The position numbers and the translations under genes were made by a program. 64,000 bases of DNA from a virus, in IMG/VR virus record IMGVR_UViG_3300021139_000002, positions 1 to 64,000 of that record, one strand, 5' to 3'. Below, one piece after another: positions 21,809-63,800 of the stretch. Positions within the stretch are counted from its first letter, which is position 1. Each line of letters begins with the position of its first letter. The notes under the pieces were generated by a model. The model had not been told where the DNA came from. It saw nothing but the letters and a program-made list of their open reading frames with translations, and ran no database searches.

Positions 21809-22336
21809 ATGCTAGATATAATTAAATTTCCCAATGAAGTATTACGACAAAAAGTCGAAGAGTTCGATTTTGAAAACTGCATCCTTGATCCAGAAAAACT
21901 AGAAGCAGAATTAATCGAAACTATGTTTGCACACGACGGCATCGGTCTTGCCGCAACACAAGTAGGAATAACGGTGCGTGTGTTTGTTATGGGTCATAAA
22001 GATAACCCAGAATCAGCACAAGCATTTTTTAATCCTATTGTGGTTAAGTGGACCGACGAAGTAGAAGATCTGGAGGAAGGATGTTTGAGTTTTCCAGGGA
22101 TGTATGCTAACATTAAACGTCCTAAGAAAATATTAGCCCGTTGGCAAAACTCAAAAGGAGAATGGCAAGAATCAGAATTTGATGGATACAACTGCAAGTG
22201 TTTTTTACATGAGTTAGATCATTTAGAAGGCATCGTATTTCAAGATCGGGTCAGTCCCTTAAAATGGGCAATGGCTGTTAAAAAGTCTAAACCCAAAAAA
22301 GTTAAAGTTATAAAAGTAAAAAGGAAATTCAAGTAA
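21809..22336 (+). CDS. def: Peptide deformylase
   Basis: GIGLAATQVG, EGCLS, HELDH. Confidence 0.95.
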   Translation: MLDIIKFPNEVLRQKVEEFDFENCILDPEKLEAELIETMFAHDGIGLAATQVGITVRVFVMGHKDNPESAQAFFNPIVVKWTDEVEDLEEGCLSFPGMYANIKRPKKILARWQNSKGEWQESEFDGYNCKCFLHELDHLEGIVFQDRVSPLKWAMAVKKSKPKKVKVIKVKRKFK

Positions 22337-24603
22337 TGTTGGAACCAGATAAAGATTTAGAAAAAATCTTTGAACATGCTGTTCAAGTAGCGTCAATTAA
22401 TAAACACGAGTATGTTACTTTGGAGCATTTCTTACTCAGTATGCTGAGTAACGATTCTTTCGTTAAACTATTAGAAGCGTTCGGTACAGACATAAAACCT
22501 TTTAAAGAAGATATCGAAAATTTCATTGCCAATGAATTGAAAGATATTGTTAACGATTCTGCCAACAAACCTAAAAAGACCGCAAGCGTTGATCGCATGT
22601 TGAACCGTGCCTTTACACAGGTATTGTTCAGTGGTCGTCAAATTATCGAGCCCGTAGATTGTTTTATCAGTATCTTCGGTGAAAGAAAAAGCCATGCTAG
22701 TTTCTTTATTAAAAAAGCAAAGATTGACAAAGATAGTTTTGTTAACTTTGTTAAGAAAGAAATTATTAAAGATGAAGAAACAGAAGAAACTACGATCAAT
22801 CCTCAAATTGAGAGAATGATCTTACAATTCTGTACAAACCTTAGTGCTCGTGCTAAAAGCAAAAAGATCGATCCAGTTATTGGCCGTGAAAAAGAGATTG
22901 AAGAAATTCAACTTGTACTTGCACGCCGAACAAAATCTAATGCGATTCTTATCGGTGATCCGGGTGTAGGTAAGACTGCTATTGCAGAAGGTCTTGCACG
23001 TAACATCTTTGAAGACAAGGTTCCTAAATTTATTAAAGAACATACGGTCTATAGTTTAGATATTAGTGCATTGCTAGCTGGTTCTAAATACCGTGGAGAC
23101 TTTGAAGAAAGGCTTAAAGCTGTACTAGCCGGACTTGAGAAAAAAGGCAAGTGTATCCTGTTCATCGACGAAGCACATATGATGAATGGTGCAGGTGCTG
23201 TAAGTGGCGGTAGCAATGATATGGCCAATATGCTTAAGGCTGCATTGTCAAAAGGTACTATTAAAGTCATTGCATCAACTACTTGGGAAGAATATCGTAA
23301 ACACTTTGAAAAGGATCGCGCCCTAATGCGTCGATTCCAACGTGTTGTTATTGATGAGCCTTCAGAAGCAACTGCTATTAAGATTATCAAAGGTCTCAAG
23401 AAGTATTACGAAAAACATCACGGTGTTAAAATCACTAACCAAGCAGTTATTGATAGTGTTAAGTATTCTGTCAAATATCTTAGCGATAAGAAATTGCCAG
23501 ACAAGGCCATTGACTTAATCGATTGTGCCTGTGCCCGATTCAAGGTACGTGACGAAGAGGGTGGCATTGTTGACCATGAAGAAATCTTGTTTGAAATTGC
23601 TAAGATGGCCAATATTCCAATTGAGACAATCAATAGCAAAGAAACAAGCAACCTTCCTAATCTTGAAAAGAATATGAAGGCCAAAGTCTACGGACAGGAA
23701 AAAGCAATCGAAAGTCTGTTAGACAAAGTGTTTATTGCACAAGCAGGTTTGAAGTCGCCTACTAAGCCAATCGGTAGTTTCTTATTTGTTGGTCCTACAG
23801 GTGTTGGTAAGACTGAAGCCGCTAAACAACTTGCCAGTAACCTAGGCATTAAGTTGATCCGCTTTGATATGAGTGAATATCAAGAAGCTCATAGTGTTGC
23901 TAAGTTTATCGGTAGCCCTCCCGGTTATGTTGGTTACGAAGATAACGCTGGTCAATTGATTACTAGCCTACAAGAAAACCCAAATTGTGTTCTATTGTTG
24001 GACGAAGTTGAAAAAGCTCACCCTAGTGTTCTAACTATTATGCTTCAATTGATGGATAACGGATTTGTTACAGGTTCAAATGGTAAGAAAGCTGATGCTC
24101 GCAATGCAATCGTTATTATGACATCAAACTTAGGTGCCGCTGATGCTGAGAAAAATAGTGTAGGCTTTGGCAACTTAGAACGTGACGGTGATCCTAAAGA
24201 TGCTGTCAACAAGTTCTTTGCTCCTGAGTTCCGTAACCGATTAGATGGTATGATTCGATTCGGCAAGTTAGACAACGATACAATGATCAAGATTGTTAAG
24301 AAGTTTATCGACGAACTTAATGCTCTTGTTAAGGATAAAAACGTTCATGTTAAACCTAATGCAGATGCTGTAGAGTATTTGATTAAGAAAGGGTTTGACA
24401 GCAAGATGGGCGCTCGTCCGTTGCAACGTACTATCGACGATATGATCAAACGTCCCCTAAGTAAGGAAATCTTATTTGGAAAACTTACAAACGGTGGTGT
24501 TGTTGAAATTACGGTTGAAGACAATGCATTGAAACTTAATGTCATTGACATTTTGCCAGTAGAAAAGGCAAAAGATGCAGTACAAGAAGCAGATAACACA
24601 TAA
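22336..24603 (+). CDS. clpA: ATP-dependent Clp protease ATP-binding subunit ClpA
   Basis: Two AAA modules ([16 protein letters not shown]), no M-domain, VGF ClpP-docking loop. Confidence 0.92.
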
Positions 24604-25680: not shown

Positions 25681-25682
25681 TT

Positions 25683-25750
25683 TTCCAAATAAACTTTTTG
25701 TAATAAATACTCTATTATAGAGTGTTATACTCGCGACTTCATATTTGGAA
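25683..25750 (+). promoter_or_regulatory. Late promoter within leader hairpin
   Basis: TTCCAAATA / TATTTGGAA outer arms, inner ACTCTA/TAGAGT; TAAATA 25704-25709. Confidence 0.5.
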
Positions 25751-25756
25751 TAGCCA

Positions 25757-26125
25757 ATGTTACTAAAAGAATTTTTCGGAAAAGGTGAAGATGTTGTTAA
25801 AAATCTTCATAAAAACAGAGACGATAAAAACATATCCGACGATCTGTTCTGGTACATCATAGACCACGACAAATTACACAAGGACTACTTTTTCCCTATT
25901 GCAAGAAAAATTGCCAAAAATAAGGACAAAATAGACAGAGAACAAATGGTCAAAGAGTTCTTACCAATGGTTTTAAAGGGATGTAAAGAGTATTACGAAC
26001 ACAAAAAAATGAAGGGTAAATTAGGACAGGTATTTTCTAAAGAATTACGTCAAGATATGTGCGAAAGATTACTAGATCATTATAAAGATGATGTAATTAA
26101 TGACAAATATAAGGTAGGCGTATAA
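25757..26125 (+). CDS. Hypothetical protein with capsid-targeting-like N-terminus
   Basis: MLLKEFF start; late promoter upstream. Confidence 0.7.
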   Translation: MLLKEFFGKGEDVVKNLHKNRDDKNISDDLFWYIIDHDKLHKDYFFPIARKIAKNKDKIDREQMVKEFLPMVLKGCKEYYEHKKMKGKLGQVFSKELRQDMCERLLDHYKDDVINDKYKVGV

Positions 26126-26126
26126 C

Positions 26127-29100
26127 ATGATCTTAAGAGAATTCTTCAAACGCACACTATTAGAAGGCGGCAATTTAGAAATTGACGGAGCACAAGCACA
26201 GCACATTGATCTTAAGGTGCATAATCGTGGATACATTGTTCCTATCTTAAGTCAATTACTTACTAGTATTAACTCAGAATTTAAACAAAGTCAAGGCAAC
26301 GACTTATGGAATCCAAAAGTTTTAAAAAGTCGTAAGTACCTAAGCGGGTCTAGTCTACATTTCTTCGACACAGACATTCCAGACGAAGAATTTGAACGTG
26401 TCAAACCTAAAGTAGGTGACATTGACACACAAGTTAACAAGGCAGCAGAACAACATCTAGCACAATGGCTTAATGGCGTAAAAGGTCAAGTTGTAGGTAA
26501 CGCCAAGTTCTTAGGTTTTAGTAGAGGTAACGAACAATATAGTAGCTTATGGGAATTAACAGACCCTCCTGTTAAAGTACAGATTGACTTTGAATTTGTC
26601 GACTATAATGAAAAGGACGAACCTACTGACTGGTCTGCATTTAGCCATAGCAGTAGTTGGAATGACTTGAATGAAGGTATTAAAGGCGTTTTCCATAAAT
26701 GGTTAATACAGGCTTTTACAAAACTATCAACACAAGAATTTCTACTACGTAAAATGGTAGGTCGTGGGAAAGCACGAGTAGAACAAGATGTTCCAACAAC
26801 AGATAACATGTTCTCATTTGCTGTAAGTAGCAAAGAGGGTGGTGGACTACGTCCTAAATACGAACCAGTAGCAGATGCCAAAGGTCGTCCACTTGTAATA
26901 GACGGTTTACCTGTCATGCGAGCATTGCCTGCTAGTGGTTACGAAAAAGACATAGGCGCAATGTTCCAAAATATTTTTGGTAAACGTGTTGATCGTAAAA
27001 CACTAAACAAGCTACTACCCAAGACATGGAGTTTTACTGGCTTATTAGATGTAATGAATTTAATACTACCGCCAGAAGAGAAAGAACAAGTACTAGATGC
27101 GTTTGTTGATAAACTATTTGCGCCAGGAGCACAAGGTCTATACAAAGGCGATGCACAGCGTGATATGGTAGAAAAGAATGCCGCACTGAACTATGCATTA
27201 AAAACTCTTAAAACAACTGCTCCCAAGAACCTTGAACAGATGCGTCAAGACTATGTTAAGAATTATAAAGTAACATCTGAAGGTCCTATTGGTTTAGACA
27301 AACCAATAGAAGAAGCAGAAGGCGATCAAGCACAGCCGGCAGTTAAAGCACAACTACGTAAAGGCATGCCTCACTTACGTGATTTGAAACCTGCTGACTT
27401 TTTAGACCTAATTGACGAACTTCGTAGCGAAGGTGGTCGTTTTAAACTACAAAATATTCCGTTAAATGTTAAGATCGACGGCTTTGGTGGACGTTTTGGT
27501 AAGGATGCTGAAGGTAAACCTTTCATGGGTACCAGTAATACTCCTCCAAAATACGAAGCAGGGTTTGTCAAGTACCATCAAGAGAAGGGTACAACTGATC
27601 CGGAAATACTAGGCCGTGCTGCCAACTTTGATAAACTATTCAACGAAATGATGAAGGCTATCAAAACCGTTGACAGCAAACTAGGTCCAGATGCATTAAT
27701 GGATAAACAGGTCAGTTGTGAAGTATTGTTCTTACCATTTGCTACACAAACAGACGAAGGTAAGTTAAAGTTTGTAGGTATTGAATACGATCAATTACCA
27801 AAAGGTGTTGATCTTGTTCTAGTTCCTTATCGTGTTGTTGATGCTAGCACAGGAGAAGAATCTCCTGAAGGTGAAAAGATTGTACAAGCATTGACCAGTT
27901 TAGGCCAGAACGGTAGTGTTATGTTTATGAGCAATAGACTTACGCAAAAAGAAGGGCTTGATGTTACAGAAATTATCAATCCGTTAGAAAATTTAGAAGA
28001 ACTTAAAAAAATTGTTAGCGATACAGCAGGTAAACGTGATCGTGCTAGCCTACAATTACGCAGAGAAGTTGAAGATAAATTAAAACCTGTACAAATTGCT
28101 TTAGAAAAAGCCATTGACGAAGATCCTAACATTGTGGGCAAAGATAATCTAGGACAAGACTATGAAGGTATTGTTATTAATAGTCGTCTTGGTCCTATTA
28201 AAGTTACAAGTCAAAAGCAAAAAGATATTATTATTAAAAAGAATGCTGCCAAGGCTGCGGCTCGTGCAGAACAACCTAGAGAAAACGCAAACAAAACTGC
28301 TGTGGTTGCCATAGGTAGTTTTGTTGGACATATTGGTCACGAGCAACTTTGGGATTATACAATTAAGAAAGCCGCAGAAGTAGGCGGAGATCCTTATTTG
28401 TTTATCGGTAATGCACAAGGTAAAGATGATCCTATTCCTCCAAGTGTTAAAGTTGAAACATGGCATAAGATGTATCCAAAGTATGCTAAGAATATCAGCA
28501 CGGTAACGCAAGAAGGCGGTAGCCTAATGCAAAAGATCAAGCACGAATTGATCAATCCATTACCAGGTAAACCTCCACGCTACGACAATATTATCATTAT
28601 GGTAGGTGAAGATCAAGCCAACATGAATATTGCTAATGCACTTATGAAGGCGGTTAACAAGTTTCAAGGTTATGAACATGTTAAGGTCAGTTTAGAAGTA
28701 ACACCGCGTGGTACTGGTATGAGTTTTACCAAACTACGCAACATTCTTAAAGATCCAAATGCTACACCTGAACAACAATATGCTGTTTGGGCGCAAGGAT
28801 TTGATGAGAAGAAATTAGGTAAACCTTGGATTTTACATTTAATGGACATTACAAGAAAAGGTATGGGTATTACACAACAACCAAAAGAACCCCAACAACC
28901 GGCACCACAAGTTCAACCTGTTGCAGAAGTAAGAGTGTTCAATGCATTAATTCGTCCACGCATAATTTCAGAATTATCTAACGAAAAGCTAGGACAATAC
29001 AAGAAAGCGGCAAGTGCAGATGCTAGTGCTGCCGATAAAGCAGGCAACTATGAGCGTGGTAACAAACGCTTCAGTGGTATTGTTAAAGCAACTAAGAAAC

Positions 29101-29567
29101 AATTTGCCAACGATGAAAAGAAACATCAAGGTGTGAATGAAAAGATGATGCCAGCAAGCATGTTCGCAGGATCAAAGAAGAATAAATTAGGTTCAGCAGG
29201 ACAATGGAAGAATACTGGCTCAAGTAAGAATCGTCCAGCACGCCAAGGTGATCTAGTTGGTGGTGCTGAAGAAAGTGTACAAAGAGAAAACGATAACATG
29301 AGTGGTGGTTACGCAAAGAACAAACCAGGTCTAGGTCAACAATCGTATGTGAGTAAAACACAAGCACCTATGGCACCTATGGAAGAAAAAATTAAGGGTG
29401 TTGACGGTAAAGCCTGCTGGAAAGGTAAACGCTACGCCGGAAAAGTGAAAAAAGCAGATGGTACTTATAAGGATAAGTGTGTTCCTGTAAGTGAAGATAT
29501 ACAAAATATTATGGATGTCTTAATTAACAAGATTATAGTAAATGAAACAATATCGAATAACAAGTGA
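26127..29567 (+). CDS. Multi-domain polyprotein: Pol-beta-type nucleotidyltransferase + ligase-like (KxDG) domain + HIGH nucleotidyltransferase + short basic modules
   Basis: SGSS…GDID; VKIDG…EGIVI…K; GHIGH…MSFTKLR; N-terminus MILREFF…LLE. Confidence 0.65.
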   Translation: MILREFFKRTLLEGGNLEIDGAQAQHIDLKVHNRGYIVPILSQLLTSINSEFKQSQGNDLWNPKVLKSRKYLSGSSLHFFDTDIPDEEFERVKPKVGDIDTQVNKAAEQHLAQWLNGVKGQVVGNAKFLGFSRGNEQYSSLWELTDPPVKVQIDFEFVDYNEKDEPTDWSAFSHSSSWNDLNEGIKGVFHKWLIQAFTKLSTQEFLLRKMVGRGKARVEQDVPTTDNMFSFAVSSKEGGGLRPKYEPVADAKGRPLVIDGLPVMRALPASGYEKDIGAMFQNIFGKRVDRKTLNKLLPKTWSFTGLLDVMNLILPPEEKEQVLDAFVDKLFAPGAQGLYKGDAQRDMVEKNAALNYALKTLKTTAPKNLEQMRQDYVKNYKVTSEGPIGLDKPIEEAEGDQAQPAVKAQLRKGMPHLRDLKPADFLDLIDELRSEGGRFKLQNIPLNVKIDGFGGRFGKDAEGKPFMGTSNTPPKYEAGFVKYHQEKGTTDPEILGRAANFDKLFNEMMKAIKTVDSKLGPDALMDKQVSCEVLFLPFATQTDEGKLKFVGIEYDQLPKGVDLVLVPYRVVDASTGEESPEGEKIVQALTSLGQNGSVMFMSNRLTQKEGLDVTEIINPLENLEELKKIVSDTAGKRDRASLQLRREVEDKLKPVQIALEKAIDEDPNIVGKDNLGQDYEGIVINSRLGPIKVTSQKQKDIIIKKNAAKAAARAEQPRENANKTAVVAIGSFVGHIGHEQLWDYTIKKAAEVGGDPYLFIGNAQGKDDPIPPSVKVETWHKMYPKYAKNISTVTQEGGSLMQKIKHELINPLPGKPPRYDNIIIMVGEDQANMNIANALMKAVNKFQGYEHVKVSLEVTPRGTGMSFTKLRNILKDPNATPEQQYAVWAQGFDEKKLGKPWILHLMDITRKGMGITQQPKEPQQPAPQVQPVAEVRVFNALIRPRIISELSNEKLGQYKKAASADASAADKAGNYERGNKRFSGIVKATKKQFANDEKKHQGVNEKMMPASMFAGSKKNKLGSAGQWKNTGSSKNRPARQGDLVGGAEESVQRENDNMSGGYAKNKPGLGQQSYVSKTQAPMAPMEEKIKGVDGKACWKGKRYAGKVKKADGTYKDKCVPVSEDIQNIMDVLINKIIVNETISNNK

Positions 29568-29850
29568 AAATAGTCAGGCTATGGATAGCAACGATGATTG
29601 TATATTGCCTCCAGATGACTATACTCACCAATTAAAACGACTGCAATATTTAGGCGGACTCGGCGGCGAAGCACGACTACAAGAATATAATGCTCACCAA
29701 AATGCTATAAATAAAGGTAGTAATATTAGTGTAACAGGCATGGAAAAAGCCACACTAATGAAGGATAACAATATTAAACCAGGAACACCAGAATGGTTTC
29801 AACTATGGTTTGCTAGACAATTCATGACTGGCGAAAAACCTATTAATTAA
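29542..29850 (+). CDS. Conserved hypothetical protein
   Basis: IKPGTPEWFQLWF motif. Confidence 0.7.
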   Translation: MKQYRITSENSQAMDSNDDCILPPDDYTHQLKRLQYLGGLGGEARLQEYNAHQNAINKGSNISVTGMEKATLMKDNNIKPGTPEWFQLWFARQFMTGEKPIN

Positions 29851-29886
29851 GGTTCAGCAATCCATTTCTAACAGATAAATAAATGC

Positions 29887-29997
29887 ATGTTAGAAAACAA
29901 ATACACTAAAATATATAACAGCATAATATCTCGATCCAAAAATCGAAAAATAACCAGTGATTATTATGAATCTCATCATATTATCATATATCAGTAG
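29887..29997 (+). pseudogene. Truncated HNH homing endonuclease remnant
   Basis: MLENKYTKIYNSIISRSKNRKITSDYYESHHIIIYQ* resembles the N-terminus of phage HNH endonucleases (…E.HHIIP…GG); stops just after HHII. Confidence 0.65.
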
Positions 29998-30006
29998 GAA
30001 AATAAA

Positions 30007-30453
30007 GTGGATCAATTAGTTCAAATAACAAGAATTGCCTTTAGCAGTACATTTAGTTTTTATGTAAAAACTCACTCATTCCATTGGAATGTAGAAGGCA
30101 GTGATTTCTTTGAATATCACAAACTATTCGAAGAAATCTATAACGAAGTCTACGAAGCAATTGATCCATTTGCAGAAAATATTCGCAAATTAGATGCGTA
30201 CATGCCTACCAGTTACCACACACTAAGTATGCTGTCAAAAATTGAAGATGAAGATCGTGTACCTTCTAAAGAAGAAATGGTTAAAGAGTTGTTAATGGAC
30301 GGCGAAAAACTATTGTTAATTTTAAAGAAAAACTACGATCTAGCAGAAGCAGCTAGTGAACATGGACTAAGTAATTTCCTAGCAGAACGTATGGACGCAC
30401 ATAAAAAACATGCATGGTTTTTAAGATCCAGCATCAAAGGTGAAATGCAATGA
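30007..30453 (+). CDS. dps: Dps-family ferritin-like protein
   Basis: K.HSFHWNVEG..F…H.LFEE.Y……D..AE.IR; K.AWFL. Confidence 0.93.
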   Translation: MDQLVQITRIAFSSTFSFYVKTHSFHWNVEGSDFFEYHKLFEEIYNEVYEAIDPFAENIRKLDAYMPTSYHTLSMLSKIEDEDRVPSKEEMVKELLMDGEKLLLILKKNYDLAEAASEHGLSNFLAERMDAHKKHAWFLRSSIKGEMQ

Positions 30454-30821
30454 GAGCAAAAGAATTTGTAAACGAAGGTAGAGATGCGGCAGGTGCTAAA
30501 AACATGCCAGGTGATCACGTTACTACAATTCCAAATGCTCACTACTTTCCAGATTTAGATAACAGCAGTGGTTATCATGCGTACCGTTGGGGTGTTGCAC
30601 TTGCGGGAGCACCTGATATTCCTATGCCAACAGACGGGCCTACTGGACAAAAATTAGTTACTATAGGATACACTGACGGCGACGATGTTATCATCGATAG
30701 TGCATCAAAGCTGTTTGGTGCTAGAAAAATTAGATTAACACCGCGTGGTAGTACCGAACTAAAAGATACATATACTACAAGTCCTGTAAGTAACTGGAAT
30801 TCAAGGAACAAAAAGAAATGA
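30450..30821 (+). CDS. Putative internal head protein (CTS-like N-terminus)
   Basis: MRAKEFVNE start resembles T4 capsid-targeting sequence MKTYQEFIAE. Confidence 0.6.
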   Translation: MRAKEFVNEGRDAAGAKNMPGDHVTTIPNAHYFPDLDNSSGYHAYRWGVALAGAPDIPMPTDGPTGQKLVTIGYTDGDDVIIDSASKLFGARKIRLTPRGSTELKDTYTTSPVSNWNSRNKKK

Positions 30822-33022
30822 ACAACGAATTTAAAGTAAAAAAATTTAAAAGCGCAACCGTTTATGTATTAGAATCTGCAACAGGGGGTGGTACTAGTGC
30901 AGGTGGTATTGCAAGTGTGAGTGGCGCAATGGGTGGAGTTCGCAAGCGTGGCGGTAATCTTATTGTTCAAGACGATAACAATTCTAAGAAAGTTCCTGCT
31001 ACCAAACCACGCAACTTTGTAGCCAAGAATGCCAAGATGGGCGGTGCTGGTGCTCACAAGGATAAGAAGAAGGCTGCTAAACAAGGTGATGTTAAGCATA
31101 AGGCCCGTGAATTGGATGTGGCGGAAGAAAGTGATAAACAATTCGCACAGCGTATGAAGAAGAAGGCAGCACAACCTCCAACAAAGGGTATGAGCCAAAA
31201 GGAAAAAGAAGATAAAGGCTGGGCGAAACCTAAAGAGCAAGGTGTGGCGGAAGAAGCAAGCCCTATGATTAAACCGCCCACTAATAGATTCGATAACAAA
31301 CAAGAAGCATTTGCCTACGCTCGAGAACACGGCGGTAAAGTATTCAGAAGCACATACATTGATCCCAACACCGGAAACAAAAACATAACCTTTGTTGTTA
31401 AAAAAAATCAAGGTGTGGCGGAAGGCTTAGACGATAGTGCTAGTGCTACCCCAGCAAAAAACGAACGCGGAAGATTCACAGCGTGGGATGATGATGAACC
31501 GATGCGTTTGAAATGCGAAGATGGTGAGTTTAGAACCATACAAGAAATCAATATGCTTAGACAGAAAATAGGAATGAAACCTTTTTCTATCAAAGGCGAA
31601 CAAGGTATGGCGGAAGGCGCCAAGTTTGGTGCTTACTATTCTGAGAAAGTAGCACAAGAAATATTTAACAAGCGTCAAGATATCACGTCCGAGGACGAGG
31701 TGCTAAATCAAGCATATCACATTGTTTCTAACGAATTAGGTCAAAAGACTGCTCGTTATAAATTTAACTACGATGAAGATTTCTCAAGTGATGTTGTTTC
31801 TAATTACTTCTGGCTAAAGAAACAAAGTCAAGGTGTGGAGGAAGAACTCGTTGGACAGCCACAATCTGGACATCCAGGACAGGCAGGTCAAGGATCATAT
31901 AGTGCTGCCGAACATACAGCAAAAACTCAACATCGTCTAGGTTCACATACATATACGGTAACGTCAGAACAAGACAATGATGGCGATTTCTATTACTTCA
32001 TTTATGAGAATGGAGAAAAGGTATTTTACGGTACTGAAATGGATAGCGACGAATTATCTGTTCATGAAGATAAGTTAGGTCCAAAAATCAGTAGTGCTTT
32101 GATAGATGAGCATAAAAAAGCAACAGCACATTTATATAATGATGAAGATGATTATGATGATGTTGACGAAGGCGGGTATGCACACGGTTTTGCAGATCCC
32201 AATGCTCCTAGATTAGGACAGCGCCAAAGAGATTATGACAGAGGAGAAGATGAACCACAAGGTATGTTTGCTGTCGTTATCAACGGTCGTCCTTGGAAAG
32301 AGTTTACCAGTAATAAAGCATTTCAAGTAGCAAAAACTATTGCTTCTAAAAATCCAGATAAGAAAGTACAAGTACGTTGGCCCAATGGTACTTTAAATGG
32401 TATAAACGAAGATCATAGCACAGCAACACAGGGCTACGGACAAGGCGGATATGATACTTACGCAAACGGACGCCATGGTAGAGGAGTTGCAGAAAATCCA
32501 GAATGGTATAATGATGAAGCTAACGGTATGACTACTGCTCAACTAAAGAGTCTGGTTAAACATGCCGCTAAGTTGCGTCGAGCAGTTAAAGCCATGCAAG
32601 CACAGGGCGATACATTAGAACCTTGGCAACAAAGTAAAGTTACCAAAGCTGCTGATTATCTAGATGCAGTATTCAACGCTGTAGATGACAATCACGATAT
32701 GGGAGAAAGTGCTCCTAAAGGTTGGGAAGGCACGGTTAAGGCTATGAAAAAGCATAAAGAAATCGATAATCCTTATGCGTTAACAAACTGGATGAAAAAT
32801 AAAGGATATAAGAGTCACAAGAAAGAAGACGCTTATATGGAACAACTGGCTAAACAAGTAGCAGAAAAATTAAATCCTAGCGCACCAGTTGATGTGTGGG
32901 TTCAAGATTTCCAAAAGGCTGATCCTAACAAGTATCACCAGTTTAAAAATAAAACTCCAGAAAAGAAAGCACGTATGGCCGCCGCGGCACATTATGCTGC
33001 CAATGAACCTAGTAAAAAATGA
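30818..33022 (+). CDS. Modular polyprotein of short cassettes separated by QGVAE-type linkers (putative internal head protein)
   Basis: DVAEE, QGVAEE, QGVAEG, QGMAEG, QGVEEE, GVAEN, DVDEG, INED, MGES, VAEK junctions between unrelated segments. Confidence 0.7.
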   Translation: MNNEFKVKKFKSATVYVLESATGGGTSAGGIASVSGAMGGVRKRGGNLIVQDDNNSKKVPATKPRNFVAKNAKMGGAGAHKDKKKAAKQGDVKHKARELDVAEESDKQFAQRMKKKAAQPPTKGMSQKEKEDKGWAKPKEQGVAEEASPMIKPPTNRFDNKQEAFAYAREHGGKVFRSTYIDPNTGNKNITFVVKKNQGVAEGLDDSASATPAKNERGRFTAWDDDEPMRLKCEDGEFRTIQEINMLRQKIGMKPFSIKGEQGMAEGAKFGAYYSEKVAQEIFNKRQDITSEDEVLNQAYHIVSNELGQKTARYKFNYDEDFSSDVVSNYFWLKKQSQGVEEELVGQPQSGHPGQAGQGSYSAAEHTAKTQHRLGSHTYTVTSEQDNDGDFYYFIYENGEKVFYGTEMDSDELSVHEDKLGPKISSALIDEHKKATAHLYNDEDDYDDVDEGGYAHGFADPNAPRLGQRQRDYDRGEDEPQGMFAVVINGRPWKEFTSNKAFQVAKTIASKNPDKKVQVRWPNGTLNGINEDHSTATQGYGQGGYDTYANGRHGRGVAENPEWYNDEANGMTTAQLKSLVKHAAKLRRAVKAMQAQGDTLEPWQQSKVTKAADYLDAVFNAVDDNHDMGESAPKGWEGTVKAMKKHKEIDNPYALTNWMKNKGYKSHKKEDAYMEQLAKQVAEKLNPSAPVDVWVQDFQKADPNKYHQFKNKTPEKKARMAAAAHYAANEPSKK
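31115..31846 (+). repeat. Dispersed in-frame direct repeat CAAGGTGTGGCGGAAG (5 copies)
   Basis: Copies at 31115 (partial GATGTGGCGGAAG), 31238, 31409, 31601 (1 mismatch), 31829 (1 mismatch). Confidence 0.85.
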
Positions 33023-33756
33023 GACTCTACGAATTCGAGCAAAGTGATTATGTAATCAGAAATCGTGATAAACTAGATCACATTCTGCTCGAACTCTGCC
33101 ACCATGTAATTGAAGGACAACAACATGATCCAGTAAAATATGGAATGGTTGCGGCCTGTGTCTTAGACCCCGAAAACCGCAAAGTCTTTGGTGTAAACGA
33201 GGCGGCCAAAGATGGTACCAGACGCCACGCAGAAAGAGTTGCAATGGATCGTTATGTAGAACACTATGGCGATATTCCAGAAGGTAGTATCATACTAACT
33301 ACCTTAAGTCCGTGTAGTGACGATATGGATGAACGCTATGGTGAAAGTTGTCAAGATTTAATCAACAATAGTAATGTTCGAAAAGTATATTGCGGTTATA
33401 CAGATCCTACCCAACATGATACACACAAAGAATATACCTTAGAAGAAACTAGTAATGAAGGTATTATCAGCATGTGTAAAAAGTTTGCTGATACATTTTT
33501 GAAAGACTCAGTAAATGAAGCAGCCAATCCAGCACAGCAAGCCGCTATTGCTATCGCTAAGAAAGAAAAACAAGCACAAGAAAACTTTGCCGACGGTAAA
33601 CACCCTGGTCGCAAAGGCCTTGCCAAGCGTAGCGGAGTAAATACCAAAGCGTCAGTTAGCAGTTTGAGAAATACTGCTAAACATAGTTCAGGTGAAAAGG
33701 CACGCATGGCACATTGGTTGGCTAATATGAAAGCAGGAAGGGCTAAAAAGAAATGA
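33019..33756 (+). CDS. Zn-dependent nucleotide/nucleic-acid deaminase fused to short basic modules
   Basis: HAE…TLSPC…C deaminase motifs; modules after VNE and AQE. Confidence 0.75.
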   Translation: MRLYEFEQSDYVIRNRDKLDHILLELCHHVIEGQQHDPVKYGMVAACVLDPENRKVFGVNEAAKDGTRRHAERVAMDRYVEHYGDIPEGSIILTTLSPCSDDMDERYGESCQDLINNSNVRKVYCGYTDPTQHDTHKEYTLEETSNEGIISMCKKFADTFLKDSVNEAANPAQQAAIAIAKKEKQAQENFADGKHPGRKGLAKRSGVNTKASVSSLRNTAKHSSGEKARMAHWLANMKAGRAKKK

Positions 33757-34196
33757 GAGCACAAGAATTTATTATCGAAGGAATGTTGCAAGAAGCATTA
33801 GATAAACAATTCGACATAATCGAATCTATGATAGAATATTGGGCCAAACATCATGGTGTAGATAGCGAAGTAATTTGGGAAGACCTTGAAGAAGTTGACG
33901 ATGAAGATCTACTGAGTGAAGCTGAAGCCTGGCAAAAGAAATCTGGTAAAAACAAAAACGGTGGCTTGAACAAAAAAGGTGTAGCAAGTTATCGTCGTAG
34001 CCATCCTGGTAGCCATTTACAAACTGCTGTAACTACCAAACCTAGCAAACTTAAAAAAGGTAGCAAGGCTTCTAAGCGCCGTAAATCATTCTGCGCTCGT
34101 ATGAAAGGCATGAAGAAACATCGTGCAGGCGCCAAAACCAAAAGAGATCCAAATAGTCGCATAAACAAAAGTCTCCGTAAATGGAATTGTGAGTAA
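33753..34196 (+). CDS. Putative internal head protein with basic C-terminal domain
   Basis: MRAQEFIIE CTS-like start; acidic pro-region, then AWQKKSGKN..GGLN…RRKSFCARM…W.C. Confidence 0.65.
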   Translation: MRAQEFIIEGMLQEALDKQFDIIESMIEYWAKHHGVDSEVIWEDLEEVDDEDLLSEAEAWQKKSGKNKNGGLNKKGVASYRRSHPGSHLQTAVTTKPSKLKKGSKASKRRKSFCARMKGMKKHRAGAKTKRDPNSRINKSLRKWNCE

Positions 34197-34203
34197 AAAG
34201 TAT

Positions 34204-34232
34204 TTGACCTTCTCTGTCTAAAACTATATACT
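34204..34232 (+). promoter_or_regulatory. Sigma70-type promoter
   Basis: TTGACC-17-TATACT. Confidence 0.65.
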
Positions 34233-34252
34233 ATAGGATACAGGAGATTATT

Positions 34253-37567: not shown

Positions 37568-37575
37568 AAAATATA

Positions 37576-37604
37576 TTGACTTTACAAGCAGATCTAAATA
37601 AACT
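37576..37604 (+). promoter_or_regulatory. Sigma70-type promoter with nested TAAATA
   Basis: TTGACT-17-TAAACT; TAAATA 37595-37600. Confidence 0.6.
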
Positions 37605-37624
37605 TATACAAAGGAATTATAATT

Positions 37625-41348: not shown

Positions 41349-41364
41349 TTGGACAACCAATATA

Positions 41365-41393
41365 TTGACTTATACTATAAGACCTGCTATATT
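41365..41393 (+). promoter_or_regulatory. Sigma70-type promoter, probably driving a leaderless mRNA
   Basis: TTGACT-17-TATATT; ATG 41400 lies 7 nt after the -10 box. Confidence 0.6.
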
Positions 41394-41399
41394 TAACGT

Positions 41400-57861: not shown

Positions 57862-60800
57862 TTAAGTTCTTCCTGTTAAAATGCTACCATTTTCATCTGT
57901 CAATGGAACACCATTTTGATCTCTTAGTACGATATCACCTTCATAGTAATACGAGTTAGGCAATTCAGTAGGGAATTGTTTCAATTGACCTGCTATCGTT
58001 GTGCTACTTTCCCATAGAGGTAATGTTACACCCGGGCTAACTACCGTATTAAATGTATTACTTAAAGCAGATTTTTTAACAATTGCTAATTCTATATTGC
58101 TTTCGACTACAATATTTAATTGAATAGTTTGTGTGTTATTATGTGCAACGGTAAATTCTTGAGGTAATTCAGTTAAACCAGTATATACCCATCCTGGATA
58201 TTGTACGTTTGTTGATCTATTTCCTACATACTGCCATACTTGACCAGATGATACAAGTATGTAAGCATCATTTAACATTGCTGATTGTGTAGACAGGTCA
58301 CTGGTTGTTCCTTGAATGTACGACTCGTCTATACTATCATATGCAATGGTTGTATCATGTACAAATATAGGAGATTTTCTAAGTTGACGGCCGCCGTAAT
58401 ACACTTCTAATTGATCGTTATATGGTAGAGAATCTACTAATTTAATACCTGCAGATGCAATTGTAGCTGTAGTTCCTGGAACTGGCGAAGTATAAGACGA
58501 AGTACTTATATGATAAACAGAATTTGTAGCCGTAGTAAAAATATATTGAATACTTACCGCTTCTGGATTTCCAAGAACTTGTAACGTTCCTTGATCAACA
58601 ACCTTCGATCCATATAATAAGTGCGGCGATACTCCAGTTCCGAGTGTACCTCTTGTTATTTCGTCTAATTTATAGCCGCCTGATGCTACGGTAATTTGAT
58701 TAAATTCAATTCTTTCTGCGTTGATCAGCACCACACCAGGTGTAGTTTCAGTAGGAGCAGTAAGAACCGTAGCATCTGCAACATAGATTTCAGTATCATC
58801 AGGCGCTAATGGTTTGGTTAGATATGTTGTATTTGCTTTACTTAATCTAGTAAACGTTGTATGTCCTAACAAGTCATTAAAGATTCTGTAGCCAAGAACC
58901 GTATCAATATATTGGGGACTCTTGAAGCTGATAATTTCTACCGTATCTAAATTTGAAATATTCCAACTATCGCTAATTTGAACCGTAACGTTATCATCTA
59001 ATAAAATGTAATCAATACCGTTTATCAATCCAGAAACCGTATCATTTTGATGTATGATCGAAACCCACATGTAGATATCATTGCTAACAGGTCTGTTCAT
59101 AATGAATCGCCTGTTTGGATTTCCTACAAAGTTTTCTATGTCAACGCCCATCTTACCTGTAGTGTCTATAAAAGTAACAACTTTAATTAAATCACCGGGG
59201 TTCAAATGTACAGAAATTGTTAGTGTAGACCCAACAATTGTGTATTCGTTCTTAGAAGTCAATAGTCTATTAGCAACTCCATTAACAATTTTTTCTACAA
59301 TATAATCACCTTCCACATTTAATGTAAACGTAGTCATCGAAGAAGTAGAAGAAGCAACAAATTGTTGATCAATTATTTGATTAAAATTACTATGAGATTC
59401 TGTAAAGAACCAGGCTTGGACAGCATTACCTTGAGATGAATCTAACCCGTTAACGGTGACTACAGCAGGTCCTCGATTATTTGCAGAAACATCTAGAACA
59501 TAATCAGATGTAGGAATTCCGTTAACCGTTACGTATACATCTTTTACAATATTAGCAAGATATCCACTGCTAACAATACCAACTGAGCTGTTTGTTGTAA
59601 TAACAGATTCGCTGTCAATTAATCCAAAATTGTTTGTGCCGCCTCCAACACCCACCATGCTGTAACTTAATTTTCCAGACGATACTTGAGGCGGAATTAT
59701 TAATCGTTGTCCTACCCAATCAATTTCAAAACTAAGAGCGCCAGGCATTATTGGCGCACACTCTAATATAGTACCGTTTAGGATAACAGAAATACTATCA
59801 ACCGTAACCGGCAACATAGGTAACGGATAATATTGCAAATCAGCACTAGGAGAAACATCAAAATATCCTGTTACTATTGTAGGTGCTTGAGCAGGACCTT
59901 GTGTATATACGTTAATTCCTAGCGTATCAATTGCAAAACCTGGAAGTAATTCTTCAGGTGCGTGACCAGATGCTGTGTTAATAAAACCTAACTCGCCACT
60001 TAATGTAATATCTTCAGGATTAGTTCCTAATGCAGATACTCTACCATCTGCATTCCAGGTACCACCTTCAATATTGCTATAAGGGTAAACACCGCCATAC
60101 GGGTTTACAAATCTTTGACCGTCGACTAAGGTACCTGGATAACTTATTCCATCCATTAAGACCGTTAGGTCGAGACCAATCATGCCGTTTGTAGCCGTAT
60201 AATATGCCAGTATGCGATCAGTTGCATTAAGAATGTCTGCACTCTTCTTATACTTAATTGTAATTGTTGCATTATTTGCAGGAGCATTATTAACAAAAAC
60301 AAGTTTAGCAAACTTTTTAGAATAACCGTTATAAGGTTGTTCATAATAATCAATAGTCCATTCACTACTTAAGGAAATGACGCTGTTTATTTTTACAGAA
60401 ATTCCTGTTTTATTAAATGCAGGAACCCAACCTAAAACAAACTCAGATGTAATACCGTCTGCTATGAATGTATCAACTACTTCAAATCCACCAGATTGTC
60501 CTACATAACTAGTCCTATCAAATTTTAATTCAATAGTAGAAACTCTGTCTTGTTCGATAATATCAGTGTATGTAGGCTCTAACACTGAATATTCAGTTGT
60601 AAAGTTTCTAATCTGCGTATGATAAGGTTTAACTTCGTTGATATAATCTTCAAAGAAAGAACTATCGTTTAATTTATACACAGGAGGCTGATACAATTCA
60701 CCAGATGTATTTGTTACATTGATGAATGATGTTTTAAAAGCCCAATCTAAAAGTTTTTGTTCTGTTAAAGCGTACTTAACTGCCTTGAAGAACAACAGGT

Positions 60801-63800
60801 TCCAATTTATTTTTAGCTCGTTAATAAACAAATCGTTCTTCAATGCTTTAATAATGTATTCAAGTTCTGTGTCAGGTGTTTGATCATACAATGTTTGATC
60901 ATAGGTATTAAGATTATCCCAATTTAGCAAGCTGTTTGAAACATCCCAAATATCACTATTAAACTGGATTGTTCCATTTTGTTTATAGACTAAATCGTAT
61001 CCATCTCCATAACTACCTAAGACACCATCGGCGGCTTTTCTTAGCACAATATAATTGCCGTCACCGCCATTGTTAACTTTAACATATTGGCCTTCGACCG
61101 TAGATACAGAACTAAGTTCATAAGGACTACCGATGACCGCAGTATAAATTTGATATTGATTATAATCTACACTTGCATAGTCAACATAGTCCCAATACAA
61201 TGTTGTATCATAGCTTTGTGTATGGGCCCTGTTCCAAGAATAGGTTACATAATCCCATTCGTATTGAGACCACTTACCATTATAAGTATCATCACTTTGT
61301 ACAATAACCGTTTGAGGACGAGCAATTAATCTAAATTTAGAACTGAATCCGTTACCAGGATGTATAATTGATGCACTTATGATGCTACCGTGTTCGTTGA
61401 CAACGGTTTTCATTTCAAATCCAGAACTATATGTATTAGGAACATCGCGGGTAAGGAAACGAGTTCTTAAATCATCAAACGTAGTCGTTGCATTGTCGAA
61501 TATAGTTTCATACAAGTCGTTAGCAATAGTAAATGTAGGTCCTTCGTAACCAATAACGGTCCCTGTTGAACTATATACAGGATTTAGTGTTCCATATCCG
61601 TATCCAGCATCTGCAATTTGTACAAGCTCAATAGATCCATTTGCATTTGGTGTGCAGTTAATTATAGCCTGTCTATATCCAGATGTATCAATTGATGTTA
61701 AAGATGCATTATCTTCTACCAAATTATCGTATGTATTCCCGTATTGGTTAGGAATTTCTTCCTGTGCATTTAAGTTTTTAAAACTATACTTGCCAGTAAC
61801 AGGAATATTAATTAAAACATTATTTGAAAATTCAATAATATTTCTTAATGCCGCATGTCTATCGTTAAACATTGTTTGACGAGGACGAACTGATGTTCCG
61901 TAACGTGTTCTTTCAGATAATGCAATATCAGGAACTATGTTACCAAACTTGTCATGACCTAACAAGCTATCTATCAGTTTCTGTTCAAGACTTAACGGTG
62001 GCATGTTAACTGCATCGCCTTCTTGAAGCAATTTCCATTGAGTGTGTCTCGGTGTAACTACAGAAGAACTAGAAGAATCTTGTGCAATATTAATACTGAT
62101 AGTATTTCCTACTGGAATATTTCCTACGTTGCTCAACATAATAGCATCTTTTGAAATAATAGATGCAAAACTTAAACCATAAGCTGATGGATCTGCAATA
62201 GCAGATGCTACTGCATACGAACTTAGTCGTCTATCTTTATGTAAAGGTACCGTTACTTTATTCTTAACCCAGAAATAATAAACATTACTAAAAGTATTTG
62301 TTATTGTATCGTAAACTTGCTTAACAGAAATAACACTATTATCAACAAACTTAGGCTGACCACTAATTCCTTTTGCAAGACCTGCTGGAGTATCCGCAAT
62401 AGCTGCCCAAGCACTAGGCAACATTGTAGAGCTTACCCATTCATATACGTCGATGGTTGCTCCTGGGAATAATTTACCCCAATTGTTTTTACGATATTCA
62501 AGGTCTCCTTGTTCATACCAAACGTATTTGGCTGTACTCAAATCCCACCATAATTCGCCAACATGGTCATCTAACCAATTTTTGTCTGTGTTGTTATTTG
62601 TTCCAGCAACACCAATAGAGTAAATTGCAGGATCGCTGATAAGTTTATATGTTAACTCTTGTTCTGCAATGCCTGGAATCTTACCTTTCAGAGGATCAAA
62701 CAGATCTAGATAGTTAATTATTTTTTCTTTTTCAGTATCAATAATTGCTATTCTACTTATAGGACTGATATCAGTAAACGTATCTTGTTCTACAATTTTG
62801 CTTAGACTATTTGTGGTTGTATCAATTTTATCAAATACAAAGAATCCAGATGAGATACTAGTATTGTCAATTGCAGGAGCACCAGCAATTACTTCAGTAT
62901 CGTCAACGACAATAGATTTTGCAAAATTATTACCATGAGTCGTTAAAATATAAGAATCAGTTAGTTCTTGACTATATACAAACCTAGCAGACTTTTTGTA
63001 ATAAACATAGATAGTTCCTGATCCTACTTCAGTTCCTTTTATCTTTGTAATATTGCCGTCAAACGTCATATTACTACTATCAAATGTTGTGTTTAATGTA
63101 CGATTAATACCGGTTGCAGAAACAATCAGTGTATCATTTCCTATTGTAATATCCATCGAAGAACCAAAGTGCATACCTTGCCCTGCTACAGGATTATATA
63201 ATGTTTGATCTAAAACAAATGTACCATTAACATTTTTATATACTGAAACTTGCCCGTACGATCCGTCAGCATTACCTACAAACATATACGTGCCATCAGG
63301 GCTAACATTAATAGAAGTATTAGCAATATTAATTGTTTGAATGTTGGTTAAAGATTTGTTATAAATTTTAACCAAATCACCATTACCAATTGCAATAATT
63401 GTTGCATCTTCGGAACCAGACAAGGCAGTAATGTTTAATTCAGATGCTACCTTTGACAGATATGTTACTGATATAGTTCCCCCATTGTCTTTAATTTCAT
63501 ATGCATATACTGCATTATTTGCACCAATCAATACAAGTTTATTTTTTGTATTTCTTTCAACAAAAATAAATTTTCCAAAATTAGTCGAGTTATTGTAATC
63601 TGGGTTTCCTACATAAGCAAATACACCTTCTGAGAATATATTTGTATTAATGGAACTTATTTTTACAATACCATGAGTTACTAATGGAGCACCTACAAAT
63701 ACCAATCCGTATCTTGTTCCAGTAAAAGGAGTATCATCATAAACTATCGTACTGCCGAAACCGGTAGGTACATAAGAATAACTTGTACCAATTCTCCATC

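Follow-up and report, generated by a model that had tools for sequence, protein, structure and literature searches.

An in-frame repeat joining the exchangeable modules of a mosaic phage protein and its possible second role as a head-protease site

The DNA described here, which we call the window, comprises 64,000 nucleotides and forms the first 64 kb of a 106-kb viral contig (IMG/VR record IMGVR_UViG_3300021139_000002; GC content 38%) estimated to represent ~30% of a phage genome. The contig's polymerase is similar to those of the PA5oct-like and Rak2-like jumbo phages, and the source is a giant, uncultured phage related to T4. At positions 30818-33022 of the window lies an open reading frame (ORF) encoding a protein of 734 residues (P0001), in which a 16-nucleotide repeat, CAAGGTGTGGCGGAAG, specifying the peptide QGVAE, recurs in frame. 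We refer to the copies of this repeat as joints and to the segments that they enclose as cassettes or modules. The elements of the ORF, together with one joint of a neighbouring gene, are as follows; regions of predicted disorder and fold are from AlphaFold2 (AF2) models, with the predicted local distance difference test (pLDDT) as the measure of confidence.

30818..33022, + strand: mosaic ORF (P0001), putative head-cargo polyprotein; 734 aa, open frame.
30818..30874, + strand: leader MNNEFKVKKFKSATVYVLE, ending V-L-E (putative first protease cut); family pattern M-x-x-E-F-K ... Y-x-L-E-S.
30863..30949, + strand: aa 16-44, copying the junction and arm found at the N-terminus of the major capsid protein; similar to the contig's own gp23-like protein.
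31004..31111, + strand: Lys-rich tail of the N-terminal module, DUF7230 / phrog_1359-like (PF23876 at E 3e-4, below cut-off; phrog_1359 at E 5.5e-6).
31115..31129, + strand: half joint GATGTGGCGGAAGAA (DVAEE), left border of cassette 1; left breakpoint of a shared cassette and of the deletion in P0002.
31130..31237, + strand: cassette 1 (aa 105-140), Lys-rich, predicted disordered (pLDDT below 50); present in loci L016 and L014, not in P0002.
31238..31255, + strand: joint 1, CAAGGTGTGGCGGAAGAA (QGVAE-E); right breakpoint of the shared cassette.
31256..31408, + strand: cassette 2 (aa 147-197), small beta-alpha-beta-beta module, predicted folded (pLDDT ~60).
31409..31426, + strand: joint 2, CAAGGTGTGGCGGAAGGC (QGVAE-G), the full canonical 18-mer; linker, pLDDT below 50.
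31427..31600, + strand: cassette 3 (aa 204-261), small alpha/beta module, pLDDT 70-82.
31601..31618, + strand: joint 3, CAAGGTATGGCGGAAGGC (QGMAE-G); linker, pLDDT below 50; QGMAE is the family's commonest variant.
31619..31828, + strand: cassette 4 (aa 268-337), predicted four-helix bundle, pLDDT above 95.
31829..31846, + strand: joint 4, CAAGGTGTGGAGGAAGAA (QGVEE-E); homologue coverage falls right after it.
32159..32173, + strand: possible decayed joint, GATGTTGACGAAGGC (DVDE-G), proposed from the rise in homologue coverage at aa 453.
32396..32413, + strand: decayed joint, AATGGTATAAACGAAGAT (NGINE-D); coverage rises from 37 to 94, and relatives have QGVAE-DH opening the same 'DHST...' mini-module.
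32480..32497, + strand: decayed joint, AGAGGAGTTGCAGAAAAT (RGVAE-N), predicted disordered; relatives have canonical QGVAE-EW at this border.
32498..33019, + strand: conserved C-terminal helical modules (aa 561-734), common to ~100 of the 120 best homologues.
29127..29141, + strand: decayed joint, CAAGGTGTGAATGAA (QGVNE), within the 1146-aa mosaic ORF next to P0001; aligned homologues read QGVAE, GVAE or KVAE here.

Four matches to the 16-mer with no more than one mismatch were found against 0.23 expected, and none of 100 shuffled sequences reached four. The copies at 31238 and 31409 are exact, that at 31601 carries GTG>ATG (Val>Met) and that at 31829 GCG>GAG (Ala>Glu), giving the in-frame series QGVAE, QGVAE, QGMAE and QGVEE. 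The half copy at 31115 includes 13 nucleotides, TGTGGCGGAAGAA (31117-31129), identical to 31243-31255, and the copy at 29127 matches the repeat at 12 of 15 positions and is in frame in the neighbouring ORF 26127-29567. Joint-to-joint spacings are 126, 171, 192 and 228 nt, each divisible by 3, and the segments between joints have no mutual similarity beyond the joint itself. Beyond residue 343 the module borders carry decayed copies, namely NGINE-D, RGVAE-N and, possibly, DVDE-G. Across the whole 106-kb contig the pattern QG[VMIL]xE is confined to the two mosaic genes and one unrelated site, QGVKE at 39221. The joint uses the codons GTG and GCG, which in this genome make up 7.6% of Val and 7.7% of Ala codons respectively, and the probability of the 15-mer as written, given QGVAE and this genome's codon usage, is 0.0018. 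The GVAE at 32483, in contrast, is written GGA GTT GCA GAA; at this joint the peptide has been retained while its codons have shifted to those preferred by the genome. The first-pass annotation of this DNA had already reported the repeat positions, the substitutions, the partial copies at 31115 and 29127, the spacings, the unrelated enclosed segments and the scarcity of GTG and GCG, and all of these are reproduced here.

The joints lie between units that are predicted to fold independently. All four fall in segments with pLDDT below 50, between folded modules, and the C-terminal part is modelled as helical sub-modules with disordered linkers between them, residues 690-734 having pLDDT above 90. 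Were P0001 a polyprotein of the virus type, with independently folding units set apart by protease sites, these predicted linkers would be the sites. The modules have no recognisable function: when they were searched one by one against Pfam and PHROGs, the DUF7230 / phrog_1359 basic tail was the sole result above cut-off, and a Foldseek search of the PDB with the AF2 model of the C-terminal 205 residues brought up generic helical hairpins, none of them at E<=0.001.

P0001 belongs to a large family. A word-indexed search returned more than 830 homologues and an exhaustive search 2040 representative clusters, all metagenomic, with coverage that is partial and changes module by module. Residues 1-95 and ~531-734 are common to nearly all homologues and the middle is found in progressively fewer. 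In the family plan the N-terminal module and the C-terminal modules are shared, and QGVAE divides a hypervariable middle. Among the 120 best homologues, each of which has 0-6 copies, QG[VMI]xE is present 240 times, and QGVAE accounts for 192 of these. The neighbouring ORF 26127-29567 represents a second mosaic family (561 hits), in which 120 homologues contain 60 QGVAE. Four different PHROGs, including one annotated as a cytidyltransferase (aa 718-923), match its 1146-residue product at points along the sequence, and its homologues bear lysozyme, LysM, peptidoglycan-binding or sigma-70 domains. Our literature search found no published description of this joint system, the string 'QGVAE' matching alpha-synuclein papers only.

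Comparison among relatives places breakpoints at the joints. Positions 31118-31252 of the window, which hold cassette 1 (a 126-nt cassette) and both of its joints, are ~99% identical in L016 and L014, and in both of these the flanking similarity to the window stops exactly at the joints. P0002, which of all relatives is the closest (91% identity), is missing precisely residues 104-145, corresponding to the 126 nt that separate the two 13-nt repeats; its identity to P0001 is ~80% upstream of the joint and 100% over 589 residues downstream. Judged by the alignments, the sharing of cassette 1 and the deletion in P0002 are signatures of crossovers in the repeat. The same picture is seen across the family. 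Splitting 238 proteins at the motif gave 215 module clusters, and of the 31 clusters with at least 3 members all but two (29/31) have more than one kind of left neighbour. The module at residues 146-202 of P0001 (cassette 2) occurs twice in P0083 with other neighbours, that at 203-266 (cassette 3) occurs in P0115-P0119 and P0209 beside other modules, and in every case these two begin directly after a joint and end with one. Cassette 4 is also found in P0055 and P0152, and stands alone at the N-terminus of P0233. Exchange extends between gene families: the DHST...RGVAE mini-module of P0001 is present at the very QGVNE-aligned joint of one homologue from the neighbouring family. The module-cluster and DNA-alignment tests are more telling in this respect than global statistics on the ends of high-scoring segment pairs (HSPs).

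The manner of exchange looks like short-homology recombination. Pfam PF00589 had no match on the 106-kb contig, which therefore shows no tyrosine integrase within this ~30% of the genome, and the conserved block of 18-20 nt is non-palindromic and lacks conserved flanks, unlike the imperfect palindrome of an attC-type site. The absence of both features from the contig argues, as far as sequence allows, for short-homology recombination rather than site-specific cassette capture.

The joint is fixed at the DNA level over a much wider set of sequences. Of the 24 distinct QGVAE sites in 32 loci retrieved through protein similarity, 18 read CAAGGTGTGGCGGAA, with GCG in 24/24 and GTG in 23/24. An exact-15-mer scan of IMG/VR gave at least 120 stretches, and among the matches listed ~155/167 (about 93%) lie in frame in long ORFs, from many samples and over a range of GC content of 0.30-0.51. 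Within 139 joint-bearing ORFs, the joints use GTG for 93% of Val (background 18%), GCG for 95% of Ala (7%) and GGT for 98% of Gly (44%). Fixation extends to two positions that the search pattern did not contain: the preceding codon ends in G (AAG 54/66, GAG 57/74, CAG 28/29; backgrounds 32%, 19% and 26%), and a following Gly is GGC in 92/121 (background 32%). Information content returns to background 2-3 nt beyond the block (A)GCAAGGTGTGGCGGAAG(GC) on either side. What is conserved, on this evidence, is the DNA of the joint and not its peptide alone, as the first-pass annotation had proposed from the codons of a single genome. A decay series, QGVAE > xGVAE > xxVAE, is also seen, and because the peptide of RGVAE is retained despite codon drift, the peptide appears to be selected in its own right.

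Several other causes of the fixed codons were set aside. Codon-pair context was ruled out, as Val-Ala elsewhere than at joints is written GTGGCG in just 1.6% of cases. An internal translation start at the joint GTG or ATG was rejected, the Shine-Dalgarno (SD)-like AAGG being 1 nt away and no downstream start being conserved. A host Chi-like or other cellular element was likewise rejected: in 596 Gb of cellular genomes the 19-mer is no commoner than chance predicts, with just 22 stretches, mainly high-GC chance matches or small contigs of metagenome-assembled genomes (MAGs) that appear phage-derived. One 8.9-kb contig (L181) of a MAG labelled 'uncultured Bacteroidetes' has three canonical 19-mer joints inside 900 nt; it is probably a phage contig of the same kind and not evidence of host.

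Evidence bearing on a second, protein-level role comes from the head genes. Outside the window, the contig carries a head block in T4 order: portal, small ORF, acidic ORF, Peptidase_S77 protease, scaffold and gp23-like capsid protein. The protease gene is at contig 93008-93640 (PF03420, 93 bits, at 93080-93508), so that a gp21-family protease sits inside a T4-like head module, as is characteristic of phages with T4-type head cargo. T4 gp21 cleaves after Glu at the motif L/I-X-E and cuts the scaffold to fragments (PMC9026906), and it also takes off the targeting leader, 10 residues long, of the T4 internal proteins (PMC9026906, PMC3012670). The scaffold of the present phage contains 6 [LIVM]AE against 1.1 expected and 26 [LIVM]xE against 10.1 (p<0.0005), and P0001 contains 6 [LIVM]AE against 0.8 expected. 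By analogy, the V-A-E of the joint fits the T4 gp21 motif, and a role as a protease site is plausible.

The N-terminus of P0001 also points to the head. Residues 16-44 (YVLE-SATGGGTSAGGIASV...) align with residues 38-66 of the contig's capsid protein (YLAE-SATAGATSAGNVATL...), with 13/29 identical (45%; pairwise E 1e-5), and the end of the 19-residue leader, V-L-E, aligns with the capsid protein's Y-L-A-E-S junction; this leader is not of the MKTYQEFIAE type. The capsid N-termini of two relatives are nearly identical to that of this contig. P0001 thus combines a leader, similarity to its own capsid protein across the maturation junction and a basic tail at residues 63-98, the features of a capsid-arm mimic. 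It is likely to be a head-cargo protein and is not a capsid protein; the 'putative capsid polyprotein' of the first-pass annotation finds no support, the gene standing ~60 kb away from the head genes among those of replication and metabolism.

Genes around P0001 have leaders resembling the capsid targeting sequence (CTS) of T4, two of which are listed here.

30450..30479, + strand: T4-CTS-like leader MRAKEFVNEG of the upstream small gene; compare T4 ipII/ipIII MKTYQEFIAE.
33753..33782, + strand: T4-CTS-like leader MRAQEFIIEG of the DUF6321 gene; compare T4 MKTYQEFIAE.

Six clustered ORFs (25757, 26127, 30450, 30818, 33019 and 33753) start M-x-x-x-E-F in resemblance to the T4 CTS, and in the fetched loci leaders of this type open 31% of joint-bearing ORFs and 9.6% of others, an enrichment of ~3-fold (p 2e-7). 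The leader starts in window 25757-34196 read MLLKEF, MILREF, MRAKEF, MNNEF, MRLYEF and MRAQEF, and the ORFs that bear them include a deaminase-like protein (33019-33756) and the 1146-residue nucleotidyltransferase-like mosaic protein. A seventh such ORF (MILREF, contig 91561) lies between portal and scaffold, and in related loci 'MRA[KRQ]EF[IVL]xE' opens ~10% of all ORFs of at least 100 residues. The start codons and CTS-like leaders of the two small genes listed are spanned by a 36-nt direct repeat (83% identity; 30443-30478 and 33746-33781), which, like the T4 ipII/ipIII leaders, may be a second recombination word acting between genes (L161, L162). The basic C-terminal domain of DUF6321 (PF19846; window 33753-34196) occurs in 339 records of isolated phages, the majority of them T4-like cyanophages and pelagiphages. 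In P-HM1 it forms the end of a 233-residue protein encoded between the terminase genes gp16 and gp17, and it also serves as a cassette in proteins of the QGVAE family.

Taken together, these results lead us to favour, with moderate confidence, a dual role in which the joint is both a recombination word and a prohead-protease site in a modular polyprotein of a giant T4-related phage. The kinds of system combined here are T4 CTS/internal-protein cargo and recombination at a conserved motif. The N-terminal module follows the plan of T4 gp61.1: a leader comes first, then a hydrophobic-x-Glu site that copies the junction at which the capsid protein matures, then a capsid N-arm copy and a basic tail. 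Behind it stand small modules in a chain, unrelated to each other and predicted to fold independently, and after these the conserved helical C-terminal modules, with QGVAE(G) in predicted disordered linkers joining one module to the next. In the DNA, as the comparisons show, the word (A)G-CAA-GGT-GTG-GCG-GAA-GGC is the sole sequence common to otherwise unrelated cassettes and is always in frame, and short-homology recombination between any two copies, in one genome or in co-infecting phages, would therefore delete, duplicate or swap whole modules with the frame intact. Cassettes with the canonical word would stay mobile, and joints at borders that do not exchange would decay at silent sites; the fixed rare codons would then be explained because mobile cassettes keep the canonical word, and strong selection at the level of the organism would not be needed. 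In the protein, V-A-E would be a substrate of the phage's gp21-type prohead protease, and the polyprotein would enter the prohead by means of its N-terminal module and be cut to separate small proteins travelling with the DNA, like the T4 internal proteins.

This is essentially the two-job idea of the first-pass annotation, and it is the best available explanation, its recombination half being well supported by comparison and its protease half resting on a strong analogy. The recombination joint and the nucleotide-level conservation have stood: relatives differ in which cassettes they have and in what order, the breakpoints falling at the repeat (P0002, L016/L014 and the module clusters), the DHST...RGVAE mini-module recurs at a joint in a gene of a different family, and neither of the sequence observations that would have counted against the idea, collinear orthologues or freely varying QGVAE codons, was made. 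The designation as a capsid protein and the label 'integron-like' have not.

The alternative that survives best is that the joint serves recombination and acts as a flexible linker but does nothing more, and that the polyprotein works uncut as a multi-domain, polyvalent-type protein in which the QGVAE peptide is kept on other grounds, for example as a docking motif or for its properties as a linker. To this we give a modest chance. It agrees with a record in which recombination at the joint is demonstrated and cleavage is putative, with the position of the gene outside the head module and with the existence of family members that have no strict joint. It leaves unexplained why the joint peptide obeys the T4-type hydrophobic-x-Glu rule, why this phage's scaffold is rich in [LIVM]AE, why the capsid maturation junction is copied in the N-terminal module and why the peptide survives codon drift.

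The nucleotide conservation might instead serve the mRNA, with the rare GTG and GCG and an SD-like AGGUG stretch pausing the ribosome so that the preceding mini-domain folds, and with recombination as a by-product. GTG and GCG are indeed the rarest Val and Ala codons and the joints do stand exactly between independently folding modules; however, GGT, the G before the joint and the GGC after it are also fixed and none of these makes a rare codon, joints decayed to common codons persist at fixed borders, and neither a downstream start codon nor a flanking structure is conserved. We consider this explanation unlikely. Still less probable, in our view, is that a sequence-specific nuclease or recombinase of the phage acts on this word and that exchange is homing-like or site-specific. 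The sharp 18-20-nt block has the size of such a site and T4-like phages have many homing endonucleases (T4 segD and segE, for example), but the contig yielded no integrase, the word has no palindrome or flanking signal, and no nuclease gene was seen consistently next to the arrays, co-occurrence not having been examined systematically. An origin of the repeats by chance, from low complexity or through recent internal duplication of a single segment has only the shortness of the word in its favour and is refuted by the shuffle counts, by the unrelated segments enclosed and by the presence of the same word, mostly in frame in long ORFs, in hundreds of contigs from many samples.

Certain observations weigh against the dual role itself. 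Family-wide, HSP ends are enriched only ~3-fold at strict joints, which we attribute to the many borders that bear decayed joints; 15-20 nt of identity is little for homologous recombination of the classical kind, and the contig, ~30% of the genome, yielded no recombinase. The nucleotide fixation could serve an RNA-level or DNA-binding function. The genes surrounding the ORF are those of replication and nucleotide metabolism (Dps-like, deaminase-like, PolB), and no T4-type late promoter was clearly recognised, the nearest approach being ATAAATACT (one mismatch to TATAAATA) upstream of 25757. In the alignment, the predicted cut E41|S42 of the capsid protein is off the column of T4 E65|A66. Finally, blastn and tblastn searches with the ORF gave no match in 50,697 phage records, so that the family was not found in cultured phages.

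The ORF is translationally coupled with the genes on either side and sits among genes for a ClpB-like ATPase, the 1146-residue mosaic protein, a Dps/ferritin-like protein, a deaminase-like protein, DUF6321 and PolB. The Dps/ferritin-like gene (30007-30453; PF00210, E 1.5e-20; phrog_3636) is directly 5' of the cargo genes, and a full-length ClpB/ClpA-like double AAA+ protein of 755 residues is encoded at 22336-24603 (phrog_4871). A minus-strand ORF of more than 2030 residues (57862-63999) continues past the window end. Just 4 copies of the T4 late promoter TATAAATA are present in the whole contig, and the cargo cluster is preceded by none of them. The near match ATAAATACT, in 25681-25756, is ~45 nt 5' of ORF 25757 and matches TATAAATACT, which precedes a structural gene at contig 87353; it gives a weak hint of late expression of the cargo cluster. 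Sigma-70-like promoters (TTGAC-N17-TATACT / TAAACT / TATATT) at 34197-34252, 37568-37624 and 41349-41399, ahead of ORFs 34253, 37625 and 41400, suggest that early transcription units start right after the cargo cluster.

If the dual role is correct, one 18-base word would solve both the shuffling of modules without frame breaks and the delivery of many small proteins from one gene, and the paradigm of T4 internal proteins and the arms race would come to include a repertoire much larger and more plastic than theirs. The family, with over 2000 protein clusters and hundreds of module types of no recognisable function, would hold a large untapped set of candidate injected effectors, and the joint would offer a clean natural case of selection, or survivorship, acting on synonymous sites for recombination. 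It would be a practical handle as well, in that a single 15-19-mer retrieves such genes from metagenomes and module borders can be read directly. Going further, and tentatively, QGVAE could be a universal 'plug' in thousands of giant freshwater phages, as DNA allowing modules to be traded in frame and as peptide allowing the head protease to release each as a separate injected protein. The result would be a population-wide, recombination-driven library of anti-host or anti-defence effectors, whose cassettes are semi-selfish and persist by keeping the word.

Among known systems, the closest for the protein are the T4 internal proteins. IPI, IPII, IPIII and Alt have a targeting sequence removed by gp21, and the present phage has a T4-type protease and a syntenic head module; the hydrophobic-x-Glu logic of the T4 cuts (PMC9026906) would be matched by the V-A-E of the joint, and T4 cargo is diverse with the targeting element alone conserved (PMC3012670), much as in the mosaic family. 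The neighbouring leaders MRAKEFVNE and MRAQEFIIE compare with T4 MKTYQEFIAE, and the T4 ipII and ipIII leaders are themselves a DNA word identical at 30/30 nt. The differences are that many cargo modules are fused here in one frame, that the word is an internal, repeated, in-frame crossover point and not a gene start, that the mosaic family is absent from the cultured phage records searched, and that cleavage and packaging are putative in this family.

The 54-residue T4 gp61.1 (MKTFKEFIKE-DMVAGDSGG...TTSGAVVNKGP...KKKK) aligns with residues 57-93 of gp23 across the known E65|A66 cut (E 6e-9), and the first ~100 residues of P0001 have the same order of leader, cut-site copy, arm copy and Lys-rich tail. 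P0001 and gp61.1 show no significant direct similarity, because each copies its own capsid protein. The T4 protein stands alone, whereas the mimic in P0001 heads a 734-residue cassette array.

For the DNA, a likeness is found in the tail-fibre adhesins of T-even phages, which Tetart and colleagues are said to have shown in 1998 to recombine between conserved motifs (the His boxes of gp37 and the Gly-rich motifs of gp38). These motifs too are reportedly short, conserved, in-frame crossover points at which protein segments are swapped between phages; they are understood to be part of one fold and to swap homologous segments, whereas the 18-mer is universal and joins unrelated, independently folding modules across thousands of proteins that belong to two gene families or more.

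The PeSL (promoter-early stem-loop) cassettes of T4-type phages are a short conserved DNA element repeated in hyperplastic regions, through which recombination shuffles modules (Arbiol et al. 2010, PMC2839356). They are intergenic and regulatory, carry a sigma-70-like promoter and a terminator hairpin and shuffle whole genes, whereas the QGVAE word lies inside an ORF, in frame and with no stem-loop, and shuffles protein modules. Integron cassettes, lastly, are also arrays of exchangeable units bounded by a recurring site, which is the sense in which the first-pass annotation had called this locus 'integron-like'. The analogy is one of outcome and not of mechanism: integrons have an integrase, an attC-like folded site and a logic of promoter capture, whereas the units here are in-frame parts of one ORF.

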